Shown here piece after piece: positions 951 through 48,472 of a stretch of DNA of 64,000 nt. Each line of letters starts with the position of its first letter. Positions within the stretch are counted from its first letter, which is position 1. The notes under the pieces are model-generated. The model worked only from the letters and a program-made list of their open reading frames with translations, had not been told where the DNA came from and did no database searches. The DNA lies in the NCBI GenBank assembly GCA_964016885.1, contig OZ024742.1, forward strand, positions 82,274,001 through 82,338,000, in the 5' to 3' direction. Origin of the DNA: Eledone cirrhosa. Its lineage: Eukaryota. Made by a program: the position numbers and the translations under genes.

Positions 951-981
<31 letters not shown>

Positions 982-1141
982 AATTGGAATAAATGCTCTG
1001 AAATAGCGATACATATGTGAATATAGACATAGAATATTCGAAAATATTCTGTATGTTTATAATAAACATTTTGAAGACCTAATCGCTATAGAATAGAATA
1101 CGTCACGTATTACAATTAGATTCTCGATAAAAGCAAGGGAA

Positions 1142-1184
1142 GTAATCTACGCGTTTCATTCTCGTTAGAAATCATCAGGACTAC
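1142..1184 (-). ncRNA. Minimal type I hammerhead ribozyme (also at 1452-1494, 1762-1804, 2072-2114)
   Basis: Exact reverse complement of the motif at 2259-2301. Confidence 0.93.
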
Positions 1185-2258
1185 ATATCCAGTGCTTTTA
1201 TCGAGAATGACACAGCTAGAGACTTATAGAATACTTAGCTGTGTACAGGAACTGGTTTGAAAGAGCGGTTGCCGGTCCGGCAGAAATTAGAAATTGGAAT
1301 AAATGCTCTGAAATAGCGATACATATGTGAATATAGACATAGAATATTCGAAAATATTCTGTATGTTTATAATAAACATTTTGAAGACCTAATCGCTATA
1401 GAATAGAATACGTCACGTATTACAATTAGATTCTCGATAAAAGCAAGGGAAGTAATCTACGCGTTTCATTCTCGTTAGAAATCATCAGGACTACATATCC
1501 AGTGCTTTTATCGAGAATGACACAGCTAGAGACTTATAGAATACTTAGCTGTGTACAGGAACTGGTTTGAAAGAGCGGTTGCCGGTCCGGCAGAAATTAG
1601 AAATTGGAATAAATGCTCTGAAATAGCGATACATATGTGAATATAGACATAGAATATTCGAAAATATTCTGTATGTTTATAATAAACATTTTGAAGACCT
1701 AATCGCTATAGAATAGAATACGTCACGTATTACAATTAGATTCTCGATAAAAGCAAGGGAAGTAATCTACGCGTTTCATTCTCGTTAGAAATCATCAGGA
1801 CTACATATCCAGTGCTTTTATCGAGAATGACACAGCTAGAGACTTATAGAATACTTAGCTGTGTACAGGAACTGGTTTGAAAGAGCGGTTGCCGGTCCGG
1901 CAGAAATTAGAAATTGGAATAAATGCTCTGAAATAGCGATACATATGTGAATATAGACATAGAATATTCGAAAATATTCTGTATGTTTATAATAAACATT
2001 TTGAAGACCTAATCGCTATAGAATAGAATACGTCACGTATTACAATTAGATTCTCGATAAAAGCAAGGGAAGTAATCTACGCGTTTCATTCTCGTTAGAA
2101 ATCATCAGGACTACATATCCAGTGCTTTTATCGAGAATGACACAGCTAGAGACTTATAGAATACTTAGCTGTGTACAGGAACTGGTTTGAAAGAGCGGTT
2201 GCCGGTAAGTATTCTATAAGTCTCTAGCTGTGTCATTCTCGATAAAAGCACTGGATAT

Positions 2259-2301
2259 GTAGTCCTGATGATTTCTAACGAGAATGAAACGCGTAGATTA
2301 C
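2259..2301 (+). ncRNA. Minimal type I hammerhead ribozyme (also at 2569-2611, 2879-2921, 3189-3231)
   Basis: gtagtc-CTGATGA-t ttct aacg agaa t-GAAA-cgcg-TA-gattac: stem I gtagtc/gattac, stem II ttct/agaa, palindromic CGCG stem III, GUA cleavage triplet. Confidence 0.93.
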
Positions 2302-3363
2302 TTCCCTTGCTTTTATCGAGAATCTAATTGTAATACGTGACGTATTCTATTCTATAGCGATTAGGTCTTCAAAATGTTTATTATAAACATACAGAATATT
2401 TTCGAATATTCTATGTCTATATTCACATATGTATCGCTATTTCAGAGCATTTATTCCAATTTCTAATTTCTGCCGGACCGGCAACCGCTCTTTCAAACCA
2501 GTTCCTGTACACAGCTAAGTATTCTATAAGTCTCTAGCTGTGTCATTCTCGATAAAAGCACTGGATATGTAGTCCTGATGATTTCTAACGAGAATGAAAC
2601 GCGTAGATTACTTCCCTTGCTTTTATCGAGAATCTAATTGTAATACGTGACGTATTCTATTCTATAGCGATTAGGTCTTCAAAATGTTTATTATAAACAT
2701 ACAGAATATTTTCGAATATTCTATGTCTATATTCACATATGTATCGCTATTCCAGAGCATTTATTCCAATTTCTAATTTCTGCCGGACCGGCAACCGCTC
2801 TTTCAAACCAGTTCCTGTACACAGCTAAGTATTCTATAAGTCTCTAGCTGTGTCATTCTCGATAAAAGCACTGGATATGTAGTCCTGATGATTTCTAACG
2901 AGAATGAAACGCGTAGATTACTTCCCTTGCTTTTATCGAGAATCTAATTGTAATACGTGACGTATTCTATTCTATAGCGATTAGGTCTTCAAAATGTTTA
3001 TTATAAACATACAGAATATTTTCGAATATTCTATGTCTATATTCACATATGTATCGCTATTCCAGAGCATTTATTCCAATTTCTAATTTCTGCCGGACCG
3101 GCAACCGCTCTTTCAAACCAGTTCCTGTACACAGCTAAGTATTCTATAAGTCTCTAGCTGTGTCATTCTCGATAAAAGCACTGGATATGTAGTCCTGATG
3201 ATTTCTAACGAGAATGAAACGCGTAGATTACTTCCCTTGCTTTTATCGAGAATCTAATTGTAATACGTGACGTATTCTATTCTATAGCGATTAGGTCTTC
3301 AAAATGTTTATTATAAACATACAGAATATTTTCGAATATTCTATGTCTATATATATATATATA

Positions 3364-4365
3364 TTAACTAGAAATTGATTGACATATAAACAGACATATG
3401 AAACAATCACATGGGATCATTTGTAAAAGTGTGTAAGGATCTGGCTTCTGTCGTTTACCAATCGATTAATTGGTGAAATATATTTCTTTAATGGAATATA
3501 TACGAGGAAGATTAATCATATTATAAGGTATCTATTTTTGAAGTTCTAGTTAAACTTTATTTAGTTACCTACCTAGCTATGTGTGCTTACACACTTTTAC
3601 CAATTATGCCCTGTGATTGTTTCACATGTCTGTTTATATGTTAATCAATTTCTAGTTGATATAAAATGCTCGCATCTACTTATTAGAATCTTGGAGCATA
3701 TTTTAGGGGTCATATGGCGCATGTCTATCTGGCATGACAACCTTAATTTAATTTGATTTAATTTAATTTAATTCAATTTATCTTAATTTTGGATATATAT
3801 AAATACGGCCCCTTAATTGTAGAGCTAACTCAGTTGAAAGGACTTGACTACTGTTTCTAGTTGTCGATAACCCTATTCACGCCACTGGGACGAAGCTGGT
3901 ATGATGTGTGTAATTTTATTGGATACAGCACGTGTTACTGGCCAGTCGGTGATTTGAACTTGATGCGCAAACACAGATGTCTGGACCTCTTCCTTGTTGA
4001 AAATCCAGTATCTGACTTCAGTCGTTTAACAATCGATTAATTGGTGAAATATATTTCTTTAATGGAATATATACAGGGAAGATTAATCATATTATAAGGT
4101 ATCTATTTTTGAAGTTCTAGTTAAACTTTATTTAGTTACCTCCTTAGCTATGTGTGCTTACACACTTTTACATATTATGCCCTGTGATTGTTTCATATGT
4201 CTGTTTATATGTCAATCAATTTCTAGTTGATATAAAATGCTCGGATCTACTCATTAGAATCTTGGAGCATATTTTACGGCTGATATGGCGCATATCTATC
4301 TGGCATGACAACCTTAATTTAATTTGATTTAATTTAATTTAATTCAATTTATCTTAATTTTGGAT
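3364..4365. mobile_element. Unclassified non-coding element: about 571-bp-period partial tandem preceded by a short inverted copy
   Basis: About 3440-3800 is repeated directly at about 4010-4365. 3364-3437 is the reverse complement of about 4155-4230. Both sides are (TA)n. No convincing HHR core found. Confidence 0.65.
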
Positions 4366-7366: not shown

Positions 7367-7626
7367 CACCTTGATCACCTTGTCCGACCAGTCTGTCGAG
7401 CACCAATCGGCGCCGCTGGTAACAGCACGTCGTGCTGTTTTAGCCGTAAGATAACGCCATCCCACTGGCTGGGCGGGCAGGCCGGTACTCATTTATACAG
7501 CTGAGTAAACTGGAGCAACGTAAAATAAAGTGTCTTGCCAAGGAAACAACACATCACCCGGTCCGAGATTTGAACTCACAACCTTTCGGTTGCAAGCCCA
7601 ATGCTCTAACCACTAAGCCATGCGCC
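7367..7626 (-). mobile_element. tRNA-derived SINE family 2
   Basis: Minus strand starts ggcgcaTGGCTTAGTGGttagagc...GAGTTCAAATC (Pol III A and B boxes), followed by a tRNA-unrelated body. Confidence 0.8.
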
Positions 7627-11786: not shown

Positions 11787-11855
11787 AGTATGTATGTATA
11801 CGTACATACATATATGTATACAGACGTACAGTAGCATGCACATATATATATATAT

Positions 11856-11915
<60 letters not shown>

Positions 11916-12077
11916 GCATACAGGTACACATACATATATGCACGCATCAGATTAGCCTACGTTTATTATAACGCCGGCCGCTTTGTTCGTTTGTTTGTCA
12001 ACAAAGCGAACAGCCTGAATTTATGCCATACGGTGTTAAGGCAACCACGTCACCTTTTTGTTCAACACTGACACAGG

Positions 12078-12122
12078 AACGATGTACTAGTTTCAAGCTT
12101 GTTAGCTATCATCAGCACCGTT
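12078..12122 (-). ncRNA. Minimal type I hammerhead ribozyme (also at 12607-12651, 13128-13172)
   Basis: Reverse complement of the motif at 13697-13741. Confidence 0.93.
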
Positions 12123-12376
12123 TACCCATCTGCCAGATAGTTGAACGTTCGAAAGTATATACTTTCCTTATGAAAATTAACGGCTGAGCAGCCTAATTTG
12201 CATATTGAGTGAGTTAAATCGGTCAGGCATACCGAAAACGATTAGTTGAAAAAAAATGAAAACGAAATTTCATTTCTCACTCTTAGTATGGCACTTACTT
12301 AAATGTAAGTATGTATGTATACGTACATACATATATGTATACAGACGTACAGTAGCATGCACATATATATATATAT

Positions 12377-12444
<68 letters not shown>

Positions 12445-12905
12445 GCATACAGGTACACATACATATATGCACGCATCAGATTAGCCTACGTTTATTATAA
12501 CGCCGGCCGCTTTGTTCGTTTGTTTGTCAACAAAGCGAACAGCCTGAATTTATGCCATACGGTGTTAAGGCAACCACGTCACCTTTTTGTTCAACACTGA
12601 CACAGGAACGATGTACTAGTTTCAAGCTTGTTAGCTATCATCAGCACCGTTTACCCATCTGCCAGATAGTTGAACGTTCGAAAGTATATACTTTCCTTAT
12701 GAAAATTAACGGCTGAGCAGCCTAATTTGCATATTGAGTGAGTTAAATCGGTCAGGCATACCGAAAACGATTAGTTGAAAAAAAATGAAAACGAAATTTC
12801 ATTTCTCACTCTTAGTATGGCACTTACTTAAATGTAAGTATGTATGTATACGTACATACATATATGTATACAGACGTACAGTAGCATGCACATATATATA
12901 TATAT

Positions 12906-12965
<60 letters not shown>

Positions 12966-13426
12966 GCATACAGGTACACATACATATATGCACGCATCAG
13001 ATTAGCCTACGTTTATTATAACGCCGGCCGCTTTGTTCGTTTGTTTGTCAACAAAGCGAACAGCCTGAATTTATGCCATACGGTGTTAAGGCAACCACGT
13101 CACCTTTTTGTTCAACACTGACACAGGAACGATGTACTAGTTTCAAGCTTGTTAGCTATCATCAGCACCGTTTACCCATCTGCCAGATAGTTGAACGTTC
13201 GAAAGTATATACTTTCCTTATGAAAATTAACGGCTGAGCAGCCTAATTTGCATATTGAGTGAGTTAAATCGGTCAGGCATACCGAAAACGATTAGTTGAA
13301 AAAAAATGAAAACGAAATTTCATTTCTCACTCTTAGTATGGCACTTACTTAAATGTAAGTATGTATGTATACGTACATACATATATGTATACAGACGTAC
13401 AGTAGCATGCACATATATATATATAT

Positions 13427-13484
<58 letters not shown>

Positions 13485-13696
13485 GCATACAGGTACACAT
13501 ACATATATGCACGCATCAGATTAGCCTACGTTTATTATAACGCCGGCCGCTTTGTTCGTTTGTTTGTCAACAAAGCGAACAGCCTGAATTTATGCCATAC
13601 GGTGTTAAGGCAACCACGCAAATTAGGCTGCTCAGCCGTTAATTTTCATAAGGAAAGTATATACTTTCGAACGTTCAACTATCTGGCAGATGGGTA

Positions 13697-13741
13697 AACG
13701 GTGCTGATGATAGCTAACAAGCTTGAAACTAGTACATCGTT
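13697..13741 (+). ncRNA. Minimal type I hammerhead ribozyme (also starting at 14224, 14747, 15246, 15769, 16278)
   Basis: aacggtg-CTGATGA-t agct aaca agct t-GAAA-ctag-TA-catcgtt: 7-bp stem I, 4-bp stem II, palindromic CTAG stem III, GUA site. Confidence 0.93.
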
Positions 13742-13903
13742 CCTGTGTCAGTGTTGAACAAAAAGGTGACGTGGTTGCCTTAACACCGTATGGCATAAAT
13801 TCAGGCTGTTCGCTTTGTTGACAAACAAACGAACAAAGCGGCCGGCGTTATAATAAACGTAGGCTAATCTGATGCGTGCATATATGTATGTGTACCTGTA
13901 TGC

Positions 13904-13969
<66 letters not shown>

Positions 13970-14142
13970 ATATATATATATATGTGCATGCTACTGTACG
14001 TCTGTATACATATATGTATGTACGTATACATACATACTTACATTTAAGTAAGTGCCACACTAAGAGTGAGAAATGAAATTTCGTTTTCATTTTTTTTCAA
14101 CTAATCGTTTTCGGTATGCCTGACCGATTTAACTCACTCAAT

Positions 14143-14195
14143 ATGCAAATTAGGCTGCTCAGCCGTTAATTTTCATAAGGAAAGTATATACTTTC
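14143..14195 (+). promoter_or_regulatory. Octamer ATGCAAAT plus PSE-like motif upstream of the HHR in each B1 unit (candidate internal snRNA-type promoter)
   Basis: atATGCAAATtaggctgcTCAGCCGTTAATTTTcataagGAAAGT. The octamer and aattttcata are conserved in the diverged B2 unit. Function is inferred. Confidence 0.4.
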
Positions 14196-14430
14196 GAACG
14201 TTCAACTATCTGGCAGATGGGTAAACGGTGCTGATGATAGCTAACAAGCTTGAAACTAGTACATCGTTCCTGTGTCAGTGTTGAACAAAAAGGTGACGTG
14301 GTTGCCTTAACACCGTATGGCATAAATTCAGGCTGTTCGCTTTGTTGACAAACAAACGAACAAAGCGGCCGGCGTTATAATAAACGTAGGCTAATCTGAT
14401 GCGTGCATATATGTATGTGTACCTGTATGC

Positions 14431-14492
<62 letters not shown>

Positions 14493-14959
14493 ATATATAT
14501 ATATATGTGCATGCTACTGTACGTCTGTATACATATATGTATGTACGTATACATACATACTTACATTTAAGTAAGTGCCATACTAAGAGTGAGAAATGAA
14601 ATTTCGTTTTCATTTTTTTTCAACTAATCGTTTTCGGTATGCCTGACCGATTTAACTCACTCAATATGCAAATTAGGCTGCTCAGCCGTTAATTTTCATA
14701 AGGAAAGTATATACTTTCGAACGTTCAACTATCTGGCAGATGGGTAAACGGTGCTGATGATAGCTAACAAGCTTGAAACTAGTACATCGTTCCTGTGTCA
14801 GTGTTGAACAAAAAGGTGACGTGGTTGCCTTAACACCGTATGGCATAAATTCAGGCTGTTCGCTTTGTTGACAAACAAACGAACAAAGCGGCCGGCGTTA
14901 TAATAAACGTAGGCTAATCTGATGCGTGCATATATGTATGTGTACCTGTATGCATATGT

Positions 14960-14991
<32 letters not shown>

Positions 14992-15452
14992 ATATATATA
15001 TATATGTGCATGCTACTGTACGTCTGTATACATATATGTATGTACGTATACATACATACTTACATTTAAGTAAGTGCCATACTAAGAGTGAGAAATGAAA
15101 TTTCGTTTTCATTTTTTTTCAACTAATCGTTTTCGGTATGCCTGACCGATTTAACTCACTCAATATGCAAATTAGGCTGCTCAGCCGTTAATTTTCATAA
15201 GGAAAGTATATACTTTCGAACGTTCAACTATCTGGCAGATGGGTAAACGGTGCTGATGATAGCTAACAAGCTTGAAACTAGTACATCGTTCCTGTGTCAG
15301 TGTTGAACAAAAAGGTGACGTGGTTGCCTTAACACCGTATGGCATAAATTCAGGCTGTTCGCTTTGTTGACAAACAAACGAACAAAGCGGCCGGCGTTAT
15401 AATAAACGTAGGCTAATCTGATGCGTGCATATATGTATGTGTACCTGTATGC

Positions 15453-15514
<62 letters not shown>

Positions 15515-15975
15515 ATATATATATATATGTGCATGCTACTGTACGTCTGTATACATATATGTATGTACGTATACATACATACTTACATTTAAGTAAGTGC
15601 CATACTAAGAGTGAGAAATGAAATTTCGTTTTCATTCTTTTTCAACTAATCGTTTTCGGTATGCCTGACCGATTTAACTCACTCAATATGCAAATTAGGC
15701 TGCTCAGCCGTTAATTTTCATAAGGAAAGTATATACTTTCGAACGTTCAACTATCTGGCAGATGGGTAAACGGTGCTGATGATAGCTAACAAGCTTGAAA
15801 CTAGTACATCGTTCCTGTGTCAGTGTTGAACAAAAAGGTGACGTGGTTGCCTTAACACCGTATGGCATAAATTCAGGCTGTTCGCTTTGTTGACAAACAA
15901 ACGAACAAAGCGGCCGGCGTTATAATAAACGTAGGCTAATCTGATGCGTGCATATATGTATGTGTACCTGTATGC

Positions 15976-16023
<48 letters not shown>

Positions 16024-16484
16024 ATATATATATATATGTGCATGCTACTGTACGTCTGTATACATATATGTATGTACGTATACATACATACTTACATTTA
16101 AGTAAGTGCCATACTAAGAGTGAGAAATGAAATTTCGTTTTCATTTTTTTTCAACTAATCGTTTTCGGTATGCCTGACCGATTTAACTCACTCAATATGC
16201 AAATTAGGCTGCTCAGCCGTTAATTTTCATAAGGAAAGTATATACTTTCGAACGTTCAACTATCTGGCAGATGGGTAAACGGTGCTGATGATAGCTAACA
16301 AGCTTGAAACTAGTACATCGTTCCTGTGTCAGTGTTGAACAAAAAGGTGACGTGGTTGCCTTAACACCGTATGGCATAAATTCAGGCTGTTCGCTTTGTT
16401 GACAAACAAACGAACAAAGCGGCCGGCGTTATAATAAACGTAGGCTAATCTGATGCGTGCATATATGTATGTGTACCTGTATGC

Positions 16485-16546
<62 letters not shown>

Positions 16547-16678
16547 ATATATATATATATGTGCATGCTACTGTACGTCTGTATACATATATGTATGTAC
16601 GTATACATACATACTTACATTTAAGTAAGTGCCATACTAAGAGTGAGAAATGAAATTTCGTTTTCATTTTTTTTCAAC

Positions 16679-16757
<79 letters not shown>

Positions 16758-25978: not shown

Positions 25979-28302
25979 CTGTATATACTTATATACCCTT
26001 ACATGTATATATTTTAAACAACGGAACTTTTTTTATCCCAACCTCCTTAATGAAATCGGAATAATGAATTAGGACTTCATTAATTATTAATGCAATGTAT
26101 TAAAAAATAGTGTTGGATAACTTTTAATGAATGATGGAATATCGGAATCAATGCAACACGCAATTCTATATTGTTTTTAGATCTGTTACAGGGATCGATA
26201 AAAATATATACTTACTAAACGTAAATAATGTAAAGGAGAATCATACATTCAATGGTTCTAATTTAATAAGAACACAAAACACTGCGACTGTTATACCATC
26301 TATGAATACGAGGATACATAAACGCTTGGAATTATGCCGTCTGAAAAGCCATCCTATAAATGCGGTATTATGTATGTTGCACAGCAATATCTAAATCGTT
26401 ATTAATTTTGTTTCTAAATTACTCCTTAATATCTGAAATTAAAGAAATTGCTGTGTGCTATGTTGAACAAGTTACATTACTGAAGCCATGGTAGTGATAT
26501 ATAGTCTGTACTTATTTTTGTACTTCTACTCATTAACTGTGCGTAGTTATTCATTCGCCGATAGCATTATCTGTAGAATCAGTAGTGTGTCAACTCCTGC
26601 ATAATCAACTTTTCCTTTTATCTTTCCGAATATGATAGAAAATATATGAGTTGCCCAGGGACTTTAGTTGAAGCTTGCATCTGTAGTAGAAACGGCAGGC
26701 ACTATCGACGGGTATATTTCGTAAAAGTATATTCTAGGGATAAGCATATTATACATTGATTGGGGCATGATGTGGCTGATAAAGTTAGTGAGTTGTAGAT
26801 CTATATCCCCGAAACACAGAACGATACATCCCGGAAGAAATATCACAAGATACACATTTCGACACTACAAATTGCACCAGTCTGTGCTCTGGGCAGATGT
26901 ATTTTTTATTGACAAAGAATGGGTGAAATACACAATTCGTTTCGTCATAATTTTAATATCAATGCAAGTTCGGCACCTGATACTATAGACATATTTTGCC
27001 GAATAGTGTTCGATAATAACAACAATAACCGCAGTATTTAATTACTCTCCTGACAGGTTGTTTTAAGCGTTGTATTAAGATAATCAATTATATATTATCC
27101 TGCCAATATACCTTATATTATTTTGTTTATATAATATACGATATTACATTATATTCATAAAGTATTATGTTATCGACGTACTTTATATATATTTAAGCTT
27201 ATCGATATTCAGTGTATTATTGCTCGTAGGATTTCATTTATTAATTTTTCATCAGTACACACAATAAACTGAAGTAGATTGCTATATCAATTAGTATACT
27301 GTTTTTCTTTCAGAAGAGGCCGCCATTATGATTCAATCAGTAATGTTGGTGCGTGATCATTGTAAAAGCACTTAACTATTTATAAAGCCGCTCAATGTTG
27401 CTGTCAGCAGATATCAAGATGAAATACTCCTATAACTGACAGGTGTTTTTATAGATAACCTGTCTGAATCTCAGAAACATTATAAAACAATGCCGCTTTA
27501 TACTAGCATTCTTATCTAGCGAGATAGCGAATATAGGAAATAAAGACACATCTTATACATAGAGAGTGAGGGAGATATATATTTATATAGATCGATAGAT
27601 AGAGAGAGAGACATATCATATGTATCTGCATGTCTTTATAAGTACATATGTATATATATATGAGAAAGTGAGTTTTTTTTTTACAAAATGAAAAATGACC
27701 GAGGTGTCCTACACGAGTGAAAGTATAAAGGAAAAAAGAAGAAATAGAAAATGCAACTGGAGTCTTATTTTAGAAAAAAATATATATATTTATTTGGTTC
27801 CTTGAAGCGGCGGCCTACCGCATGCTGTCTTCTTCAACCAGCCCTTGTAAGTACATGTTATGTTTTATACTATGTTTCTAGATTTACAGTTAATATGTGG
27901 GCTAAGTTTATATTGTTATACTTTGGGAGGGACATGTTGCCAATAAGAAACACACGCACCAGCTGCTTTCAGTCCAATTTATTATAAATTAAATTATAAA
28001 TTTAAAAATTTATAAATTTCCGGTTGTTTGGTTGGTTCCACAACCGGACGGTTCTTCATATATTGTCAAAGTTCTTTCGTCACACATTATGTGACCTCTT
28101 CAGTGACTGGGATTATTTTCTTTGTTTAGTGCCTCTCCTTGGTTCTGTCCTACGCCATCTTGTTTTTCTGTATGTTGTGTGCTTAGTTTGCGCATGTGTT
28201 ACATCGGGGTGTCTGTGTGTGTTTTTATTTGATTATATATTTGTTTATTTACATGTTCCTGGTTGGTTGTTTGTTCTATGTGTGTGTGTTTTCATTTTGT
28301 CC

Positions 28303-30516: not shown

Positions 30517-30559
30517 GTCACTGAAGAGGTCACATACTGTGTGACGAAAGTACTTTGAC
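30517..30559 (+). ncRNA. pLTR type I hammerhead ribozyme (partner copy on - at 28065-28107)
   Basis: gtca-CTGAAGA-g gtcacat act gtgtgac-GAAA-gtac-TT-tgac. Confidence 0.8.
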
Positions 30560-30887
30560 ACTATATGAACAACCGTCCGGTTGTGGAACCAACCAACCAA
30601 CCAGAAATTCATAAATGTTTAAATTTATAATTTAATTTATAATAAATTGGAGTGAAAGCAAATGGTACGTGTGTTTGTTATTGACAACATGACCCTCCCA
30701 AATTATAACAACATCGGTGTCAACACACGTTTTAAGATAAAGAATCTTGTTAAACAAATTCAGAAACGAAATATATATATATATATACATATGTGCATGT
30801 CCGTGTGTGTGAGTATATGCGAGTGAGTGTGTGATTGTGTGAATATTTGTCTAAAGATTTAGAACTATATATACATAAATATATATG

Positions 30888-40591: not shown

Positions 40592-41674
<1,083 letters not shown>

Positions 41675-42350: not shown

Positions 42351-42935
42351 ATACATATGTGTGTTTGATTTTTCCAGGGGGGGGGGGGGCACGCTGTGTC
42401 CTTAATCCAATATATTTGGAATTTTATTTACGTATGTTTATTCTCTAGATACGTCTGAAGTACATAGAAAATCGAAAAGAAAAACACAAATATTTTTCCA
42501 TATTGAAAATTGCAGGCTAAGAGCTATTTTGGGTTCTTATTAAACAATGCTGCTGCCGGGTATGTACACAATTAGAGCCAACGAATTAAAATACTTTATA
42601 GCTGGAGGAAACAAATTAATTGCTATTGGAACATGAAAGTGGATATATCGAGGTAGGAAATGAAGGAAGCAAATGTAACTAAAATCAATGCTTCTTGTAG
42701 AAAATGTTTGTTACATGTATAAAAGTGTAAAAAGAAAATATATACACACAATTATGTAGATAGATATGTACGCACACACACACACATACATACATACAAA
42801 CATGCATGCATATATATATATTAATAAAAGGAATTGAAACTTTGTCTGATTTACGAGTTTTATTTACGATCCTTTAAAATTATAATTATTTTATAATGAA
42901 ATAGTATTGTAGAATATTAACTGTTAAATGTTAAT

Positions 42936-42974
42936 TGAACAAGTACTTTCATGCTTTCGCAATCATCAGGTTCA
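42936..42974 (-). ncRNA. pLTR type I hammerhead ribozyme (partner on + at about 48086-48123; partly deleted copy at about 43910)
   Basis: tgaac-CTGATGA-t tgc gaaa gca t-GAAA-gtac-TT-gttca. Confidence 0.88.
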
Positions 42975-47676: not shown

Positions 47677-48472
47677 AAATAATAATGCTTAGGTTATTAC
47701 TTCCACTATGACTACGCCTACGACTATGCAGACTACCACCACTAACAACAACAACAACAATAATAATAATACAAGTGATGTGGATGTTAATGATTACTGA
47801 AGATTGTTTATAAAAACCATAGAAAATACTATTTTCATCATTTCTATAAATAGCAAGACAATTGATACTTTGGATAGGGTCAAATAGGAGTCGTTAGACG
47901 TACTCAACCAACCGTGACGCCTAAACCAATCAGCTTTGGTAATCTAGTTAAACTACACACCGATTGGTCGAAATACAGTCTACAAAATCTAGCATTCAGT
48001 AGCCCCTTTTTACTGTATATAAGGCACAGATTTTACCCATCTCATTTCAGGTGAAAATTGCAAACTTGACTGTCACCATTGAATATGACCTGAAGATTGC
48101 GAAAGCATGAAAGTACTTGTTGAATTAACATTTAACAGTTAATATTCTACCATACTATTTCATTAAAGGATTGTAAATAAAACGAGTAAATCAGACAAAG
48201 TTTGAATTCCTTTTATTACTATAATCTTCTATACACAATGATACATACCCGTGTATATTTAATCATATATATAAATAAAGTATCGAGTATATGTTGGTTG
48301 TATAGCAACACCTCAGTATGCAGATTGGAGCACTCGACGAAATGCGCAGATTGGTTACTCCGGAGTAATGTAAAATAAACTAAAATAAATAGGTCAAATA
48401 TTTAAAATAAACGAAGCCAAATTTAAAATATTTGTCTTATTTATTTTAGTTTATTTTATATATATATATATA

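Follow-up and report, generated by a model that had tools for sequence, protein, structure and literature searches.

The window analysed here, a stretch of 64,000 nt from Eledone cirrhosa, contains at positions 981-3352 an array of 310-bp units that each bear a hammerhead ribozyme motif and that change orientation midway, and the question raised by the locus is what sort of event could have deposited near-identical units in two opposed arms within (TA)n. An earlier note on this DNA had read it as the footprint of a self-cleaving, probably circular RNA that was reverse-transcribed in a single insertion. Retrozymes, their proposed dependence on PLEs and the inversions and tails of PLEs are already known. 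Retrozyme mobilisation via circles is given as a hypothesis (PMC7229834) or left open (bioRxiv 10.64898/2026.07.22.740005), and the origin both of the tandem and inverted structure of PLE insertions and of their tail is named as unsolved (PMC8557442). In the literature searched, mostly open-access main texts, no account was found of retrozyme insertions with two arms, of a one-tail rule that is strictly kept or of a monomer template traced in genomic copies. Based on the sequence evidence collected in this study, the array is understood as one insertion of a young and abundant non-LTR retrozyme family.

Anatomy of the array

Positions within the unit are expressed as u (window position minus 2205), which places the predicted ribozyme cut after u90. 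The left arm (981..2206; 1226 bp, 3.95 units; ribozyme-sense strand minus) and the right arm (2206..3352; 1147 bp, 3.7 units; plus strand) both show a period of 310 in TRF, with 4.0 copies at 100% matches and 3.7 copies at 99% matches, respectively, and are reverse complements of each other (1159 nt, 99%). They meet head-to-head at 2206..2206, the base T2206 being common to both in an overlap of 1 nt (left u272, right u1). Type I hammerhead cores were located by the core pattern at 1148-1178, 1458-1488, 1768-1798 and 2078-2108 on the minus strand of the left arm, and at 2265-2295, 2575-2605, 2885-2915 and 3195-3225 on the plus strand of the right arm, hence four per strand and all pointing away from T2206. 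Target (TA)n lies to the left at 956..980 (from sequence and TRF) and to the right at 3348-3364, of which 3353..3364 is beyond the arm; the right-arm end has TATAT in common with this target. The left arm terminates in its 3' direction at the tailed position u257, the 28 nt from the untailed end zone (to u229) up to that position (981..1008, minus strand) representing a PLE-type 'tail' in the sense of PMC8557442 and PMC11167929, and the right arm terminates untailed at u217. The insertion is built solely of 310-bp units, judged non-coding by eye and without LTR, and comprises no ORF combining RT and GIY-YIG as found in an autonomous PLE.

The earlier note had described eight type I hammerheads, one per unit, on strands diverging from 2206 with both 3' ends fused to (TA)n, and the anatomy agrees with it in each of these respects. 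It had also placed the four arm ends at different phases of the unit; the phases do differ (u257 at 981, u272/u1 at 2206, u217 at 3352), but only the inner ends are free in phase, the outer ends being located at two family-wide fixed sites, one per end.

Predicted self-cleavage of the unit

The ribozyme cassette (2235..2325, plus strand) consists of a long closing hairpin, a 6-bp stem I, the core at 2265-2295 and stems II and III. Cleavage is predicted to occur after GUA at 2295, and the cut-to-cut monomer of 310 nt (2296..2605, plus strand) is the putative circle. The ribozyme lies in a long hairpin with a folding z of -4.88, as compared to -3.95 for the monomer. Stem II starts with U.U and stem III consists of one pair and a palindromic CGCG loop, and in the young form the inner pair of stem III could arise only between two ribozymes. 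Rfam returned no match at gathering level, nor did a hammerhead emerge when E values up to 10 were admitted, so that the ribozyme call depends on motif anatomy, folding and covariation. An older subfamily provides the last of these: it has another ribozyme sequence arranged in the same stems, with the remaining unit ~78% alike, and in an alignment of these two subfamilies only, 93% of cells are paired and 16 of 27 pairs are changed on both sides, compared to 40-46% paired in slid controls; with a set of this size, the count from shuffling is not to be read as a probability.

Two axolotl ribozymes described in PMC7229834 likewise combine a weak stem III and palindromic loop with U.U at the base of stem II, and they cleave well only as dimers. 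Cleavage was observed for just one of nine predicted retrozyme dimers in bioRxiv 10.64898/2026.07.22.740005, and PLE insertion in vitro does not need ribozyme cleavage (PMC11167929). Analysis of motif and fold suggests that the 310-nt unit is probably a self-cleaving hammerhead and probably active as a dimer. A lone hammerhead at C1:18.7 Mb was considered and proved unrelated.

A young family dispersed through the genome

The search for the family covered 3.0 Gb in 1,796 contigs and returned 14,218 exact hammerhead cores (7,455 + 6,763; control 0); a relaxed core pattern gave 18,810 matches (control 23), a count that includes some other families. Patterns for the outer ends matched 1,749 tailed (control 0) and 2,246 untailed ends (control 88), from which about 2,000-2,500 insertions are estimated. 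Multiplied by 310 bp, the two core counts, the larger with its share of other families, indicate that this family, in the form of long and perfect inverted repeats, accounts for about 4-6 Mb of the genome. On 36 Mb, the first 100 core matches listed resolve into 15 loci; 11 of these are head-to-head, 4 have cores on one strand only, and a tail-to-tail arrangement is absent. Arms range in the family from under one to over 25 units (longest 26.4). The loci are dispersed over many contigs, and nearly all end matches run into (TA)n, to be read with the caveat that the untailed pattern selects A/T flanks and the tailed pattern does so weakly. Copies of the older subfamily (L048-L050) represent the same retrozyme at a greater age, and their arms are short at the loci read.

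With a unit inside the range of 170-400 nt, one hammerhead per unit, covariation of the stems and dispersal, the family has the sequence properties of a non-LTR retrozyme, and the inverted 5'-truncated copy, the tail at one end and the AT-rich or (TA)n target are those of an insertion mobilised by a PLE. The identification as a retrozyme offered in the earlier note is thus strengthened by the 14,218 cores, the non-coding 310-nt unit and the covariation, and the PLE-type inversion, the targeting of (TA)n and the dispersal that it had supposed recur genome-wide: inversion is the prevailing form, outer ends are fixed and flanks are (TA)n. The claim of a single insertion event found its support in locus L095, situated in non-repetitive DNA, where a target-site duplication of 13-14 bp encloses both arms, which implies one integration event. 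At the 981-3352 insertion, a duplication is unreadable since the site is itself (TA)n.

Contigs from sequencing runs were inspected in addition. Of the 15 joints listed for run X5, which is possibly not independent of the assembled sample, 13 are head-to-head and differ in phase from the junction at 2206. No contig of the four sequencing runs spans the junction at 2206, and none represents an empty site or spans the flanks. Single contigs of 340 nt in runs X1 and X2 (one 310-nt cycle plus 30) were discarded as circle evidence, tandem DNA explaining them equally. At G000:C14:25.02-25.32 Mb, one junction occurs in 25 copies, the insertion having been amplified there as part of a larger satellite or duplication.

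One tailed and one untailed outer end

The 3' outer ends of the family fall at two fixed sites ~30 nt apart, either in u216-229, the short TA tract of the unit (untailed), or in u252-257 (tailed). In C1 0-123.6 Mb, 69 tailed and 96 untailed ends form 59 head-to-head pairs of one tailed and one untailed end, spanning 0.2-15 kb at a pairing limit of 20 kb, and neither a tailed/tailed nor an untailed/untailed pair was found within that limit. Under independent choice at each end, one of each in 59 of 59 pairs would have a probability of ~0.5^59; end pairing, arm-length correlation and probabilities were worked out by hand, with one internal and four unrelated rows dropped. An apparent tailed/tailed pair 21 kb apart was recognised as two separate insertions. 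Unpaired in the same region are 10 tailed and 37 untailed ends; of the four unpaired tailed ends that were inspected, two had an untailed partner, one ran into a gap and one was atypical.

Reading of individual loci gave the same picture. Two-armed loci readable at both ends show one tailed and one untailed end in 25 of 25 cases (11 of them on C1 0-123.6 Mb), with atypical ends at two loci (L043, L081) and unreadable ends at two more (L041, L093); single-arm loci that were examined have the untailed end (4/4). The rule is kept in both old-subfamily loci analysed (2/2) and also in 2/2 loci of the unrelated 466/520-bp family, there with an extension of 55-60 nt. The 981-3352 insertion obeys it with u257 on the left and u217 on the right. 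At the untailed ends of L038, L040, L041, L047, L039 and L034, G is found at u226 and the inner units have A, which suggests priming beside a GTAT variant of the target.

The relevant biochemistry comes from PMC11167929, in which the PLE tail is traced to two internal RNA start sites of the PLE enzyme and the protein, modelled as a dimer, is described to cut and extend both DNA strands. What makes the one-tail rule important is that these two start sites, defined in vitro, are thereby matched to the pair of DNA ends present in a single event, and the origin of PLE inversions and tails becomes testable. In the PLE papers the tail is called 'optional' or 'often' present, in contrast to the strict occurrence in 59 of 59 pairs here.

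Inner ends and junctions

The ribozyme cut is not a favoured place for arms to begin (9 rows, compared to 48 at a control phase, of which 25 belong to one amplified cluster), implying a template without a free 5' end at that position. Judged by boundaries from TRF and BLAST, the two arms overlap by 0-9 nt at the inner junction in nine of ten loci, the remaining one having a filler of 20 nt; the phase of the junction varies between loci and there is no fixed palindrome. Within arms, all aligned monomers join without indel (16/16). Arm asymmetry occurs either way, with 2.1 untailed against 7.2 tailed units in one case and 26.4 untailed against 4.1 tailed units in another, and lengths of the two arms are loosely correlated (Pearson r about 0.48 from core counts, n=25; 0.78 without L034).

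Variant runs and the monomer template

A template composed of several units would pass a new variant to one unit only, and fixation of a variant across a whole locus therefore indicates a one-unit template. The near-private G at u226 occupies all seven sites available in the 981-3352 insertion (2431, 2741 and 3051 on the plus strand; 1012, 1322, 1632 and 1942 on the minus strand), and its nine matches genome-wide are completed by two lone units. One of these, at G000:C6:65.10 Mb, is 1 of 12 units in its array, and its monomer is identical (310/310) to 2296..2605. By sequence identity, this unit is a candidate parent of the 981-3352 insertion, though independent mutations could also explain the candidate parent matches. 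C at u237 behaves similarly elsewhere, being present in 6 of 6 units across both arms at one locus, in 3 of 3 at another and in 1 of 13 at a third; two variants fixed in whole insertions thus are found also as lone units inside other arrays.

More general sampling leads to the same result. A loop variant is common to both arms in 11 of 11 loci among the first 100 core matches listed, with four variants segregating. A position chosen blindly gave 168 matches, and the first 100 listed include 94 in seven unbroken two-arm runs, one pair and four single units, with no run of at least three confined to part of one arm. Four of these runs were checked and each covers the whole locus (24/24, 11/11, 9/9 and 16/16). 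An earlier blind position (302 matches) was a subfamily allele and mainly exposed mosaic loci.

Certain observations stand against strict fixation. The 981-3352 insertion has C237 in two adjacent right-arm units (2752 and 3062, plus strand) and T at the other five sites. L147 (G000:C2:381.02 Mb), an older 312-bp locus with a 22-unit arm, carries C in 19 and T in 4 of 23 units at one site, and a mixture of T and C is found at two further loci. The C237 pair and the mosaic loci could be due to units duplicated or converted afterwards, to use of a second template or to an RNA base that was read ambiguously. Taken over the genomic copies, the variant runs show the insertion template to have been a monomer, and the rolling-circle origin proposed in the earlier note gains added support from private variants fixed across both arms. 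Thousands of near-identical insertions appear to record this monomer bottleneck, and the question of mobilisation via circles thereby becomes testable.

Proposed mechanism and its alternatives

The collective evidence is probably best understood as that of a non-autonomous retrozyme, the monomer circle of which is reverse-transcribed by a PLE from both ends of a staggered cut. To proceed, the reaction would require transcription of an array, release of 310-nt monomers by the hammerheads, probably acting as dimers, and ligation to circles, the latter steps being adopted from known retrozymes. A PLE protein with RT and GIY-YIG nuclease would cut AT-rich DNA, the duplication at one locus suggesting a stagger of ~13 nt. 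Both DNA 3' ends would then prime, as is evident from the one-of-each rule, on what is presumably the same RNA molecule, one at the short AU tract of u216-229 and the other ~30 nt further 3' at u252-257. The number of turns that each enzyme makes on the template would range from less than one to more than 25, both cDNAs would be joined at random phase in the manner seen at the junctions (overlap of 0-9 nt or short filler), and the host may fill the second strands. Priming from one DNA end alone would leave a single arm that ends untailed. We suggest tentatively, and with somewhat less than even confidence, that one 310-nt circle is copied simultaneously by both subunits of a PLE dimer, each from its own start site and under strand displacement, and that several unrelated ribozyme circles use the same route.

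Different templates might be considered for the same two-ended priming. An uncleaved linear multimer, with arrays lengthened and homogenised only later in DNA through unequal exchange and inter-arm conversion, would agree with unprocessed RNA being the main PLE substrate in vitro (PMC11167929), and arm starts that are not enriched at the cut fit uncleaved RNA equally. The adjacent C237 pair and the L147 mosaic suggest that units are occasionally duplicated or converted after insertion. Yet this reading appears unlikely, considering that lone variants survive unhomogenised in long arrays (1/12, 1/13) and others are fixed over both arms, that partial runs within one arm are lacking among the first 100 matches listed for the blind position, and that old-subfamily copies have short arms, not longer ones. 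A linear monomer, copied by an enzyme that jumps from the 5' end to the 3' end or to identical sister molecules, accounts equally for whole-locus fixation, and non-LTR reverse transcriptases frequently jump between templates. Jumps should leave stops or errors at the cut, yet no excess of arm starts is seen at that position and the 16 aligned monomers join free of indels, which makes the linear monomer about as unlikely.

Other explanations dispense with the second priming event or with the inversion itself. In the fold-back or self-priming model, proposed for rotifer PLEs (PMC3846280), one cDNA turns and copies itself, and head-to-head geometry and identity of the arms are thus predicted; the loose correlation of arm lengths also fits. 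A copied arm could at most equal its template in length, yet the longer arm by far may be either of the two, which rules out simple fold-back, and the junctions vary in phase, overlap by 0-9 nt and show no fixed palindrome. Barring great changes of arm length once the insertion was made, the model is refuted for the most part, and we consider it very improbable. Fold-back as an artefact of assembly or of long reads could be suspected from the fact that the 2206 junction is unspanned in the contigs of four sequencing runs. The two-armed form is, though, met again at loci that have junctions of their own, it obeys strict rules at its ends and is accompanied by a target-site duplication, and it is seen also in the head-to-head joints of the perhaps not independent run X5, all of which makes the artefact hardly credible. 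Self-insertion into the unit's own TA tract as a source of arms was rejected because nested inversions are predicted from it and the loci consist of two clean arms.

Returning to the monomer circle primed from both target ends, we note that twin-primed rolling-circle TPRT, if true, would explain the PLE tail, the head-to-head inversion and the retrozyme multimers together, and lineages from parent unit to daughter array would become readable from the genome. The in vitro PLE assay that already exists would also gain a compact substrate in a short circle that directs insertion of a multi-kilobase concatemer.

The putative partner PLE

From 10,596 first-look candidates, 150 GIY-YIG matches were considered and 46 loci fetched. 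The genome has PLE ORFs with RT followed by GIY-YIG, the near-intact ones measuring 938, 844, 1096 and 636 codons from stop to stop. L100 and L101, with the 938- and 844-codon frames, are near-identical copies, and the family to which they belong is young and perhaps active to this day. In one PLE family a hammerhead core is present, and its head-to-head copies have their ends in TA-rich DNA. The flanks of L100, L101 and L111 harbour hammerhead-like motifs, with no clear likeness to the 310-bp unit. Among the 46 GIY-YIG loci, no autonomous PLE was found to have sequence in common with the unit, isolated short-motif matches being the only ones and none of them demonstrably a pLTR, and no RT motif was found near 22 diverged unit matches. 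The CxxC linker of the ORFs suggests the Neptune clade, in keeping with the label used in PMC8557442, and the presumed mobilising protein is most likely of Neptune type.

Relation to known elements

Regarding the use of both target ends for priming, there exists an analogy to L1 twin priming, in which both ends prime on one RNA and the inversion is joined by microhomology. The second primer of L1 engages variable upstream sites of a linear RNA, whereas here the first site is followed on its 3' side by a second one that is fixed, and each arm is a concatemer.

Metazoan non-LTR retrozymes (PMC7229834, bioRxiv 10.64898/2026.07.22.740005) resemble the family in having a non-coding tandem unit of 170-400 nt with one type I hammerhead each, low GC, dispersed monomers and multimers, and co-occurrence with PLEs. 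In the text of these sources they are described simply as tandem arrays, whereas the insertions here are mostly two-armed, head-to-head and fixed at their ends. In Xenopus, 24 of 57 families are linked by sequence to an autonomous PLE, as opposed to the 310-bp unit for which no such link was found. Neptune and Poseidon PLEs (PMC8557442, PMC3846280, PMC11167929) are similar in their partial tandems, inverted 5'-truncated copy, preference for (TA)n, tail of 30-40 bp that is often one-ended, larger target duplication and hammerhead upstream of the initiation sites; the 310-bp element differs from them in lacking an ORF and in consisting of multimers, with up to 26 units, on either side of the junction. 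MRC1 of Chlamydomonas (PMC8557442) is likewise non-coding and PLE-driven and forms multicopy head-to-tail insertions, but the 3' end of MRC1-like derivatives resembles an autonomous family, and their clade is described as mostly without canonical hammerheads.

Other hammerhead arrays in the window

The window contains additional arrays and motifs. A second head-to-head hammerhead array, at 11,835-16,680, belongs to an unrelated family with a ~520-bp unit and internal (TA)n; it has three cores on the minus and six on the plus strand, a junction near 13,618 and one short and one extended end, and a 466-bp form related to it is found in L033 (1393-4092). A third family, with a 466-bp unit, is present at 40,689-41,640 between (TA)n tracts, in 1.9 copies and a short inverted arm, and a related copy in L034 (2629-3657) matches a hammerhead pattern. 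Cores that match the L111 PLE family diverge ~5 kb apart at 42,932-42,969 (minus) and 48,090-48,127 (plus), possibly as a decayed head-to-head PLE, and the interval of 41.7-49 kb has no ORF of at least 150 aa. Immediately to the right of the 981-3352 array, inverted arms of 78 bp (91%) occupy 3360-3663, and a duplicated high-copy repeat of ~330 bp lies at 3460-3790 and 4030-4360. A tRNA-like match at 7563-7620 (minus) is probably the head of a SINE, and hammerhead-like cores at 28,059-28,103 (minus) and 30,521-30,565 (plus) diverge 2.4 kb apart.
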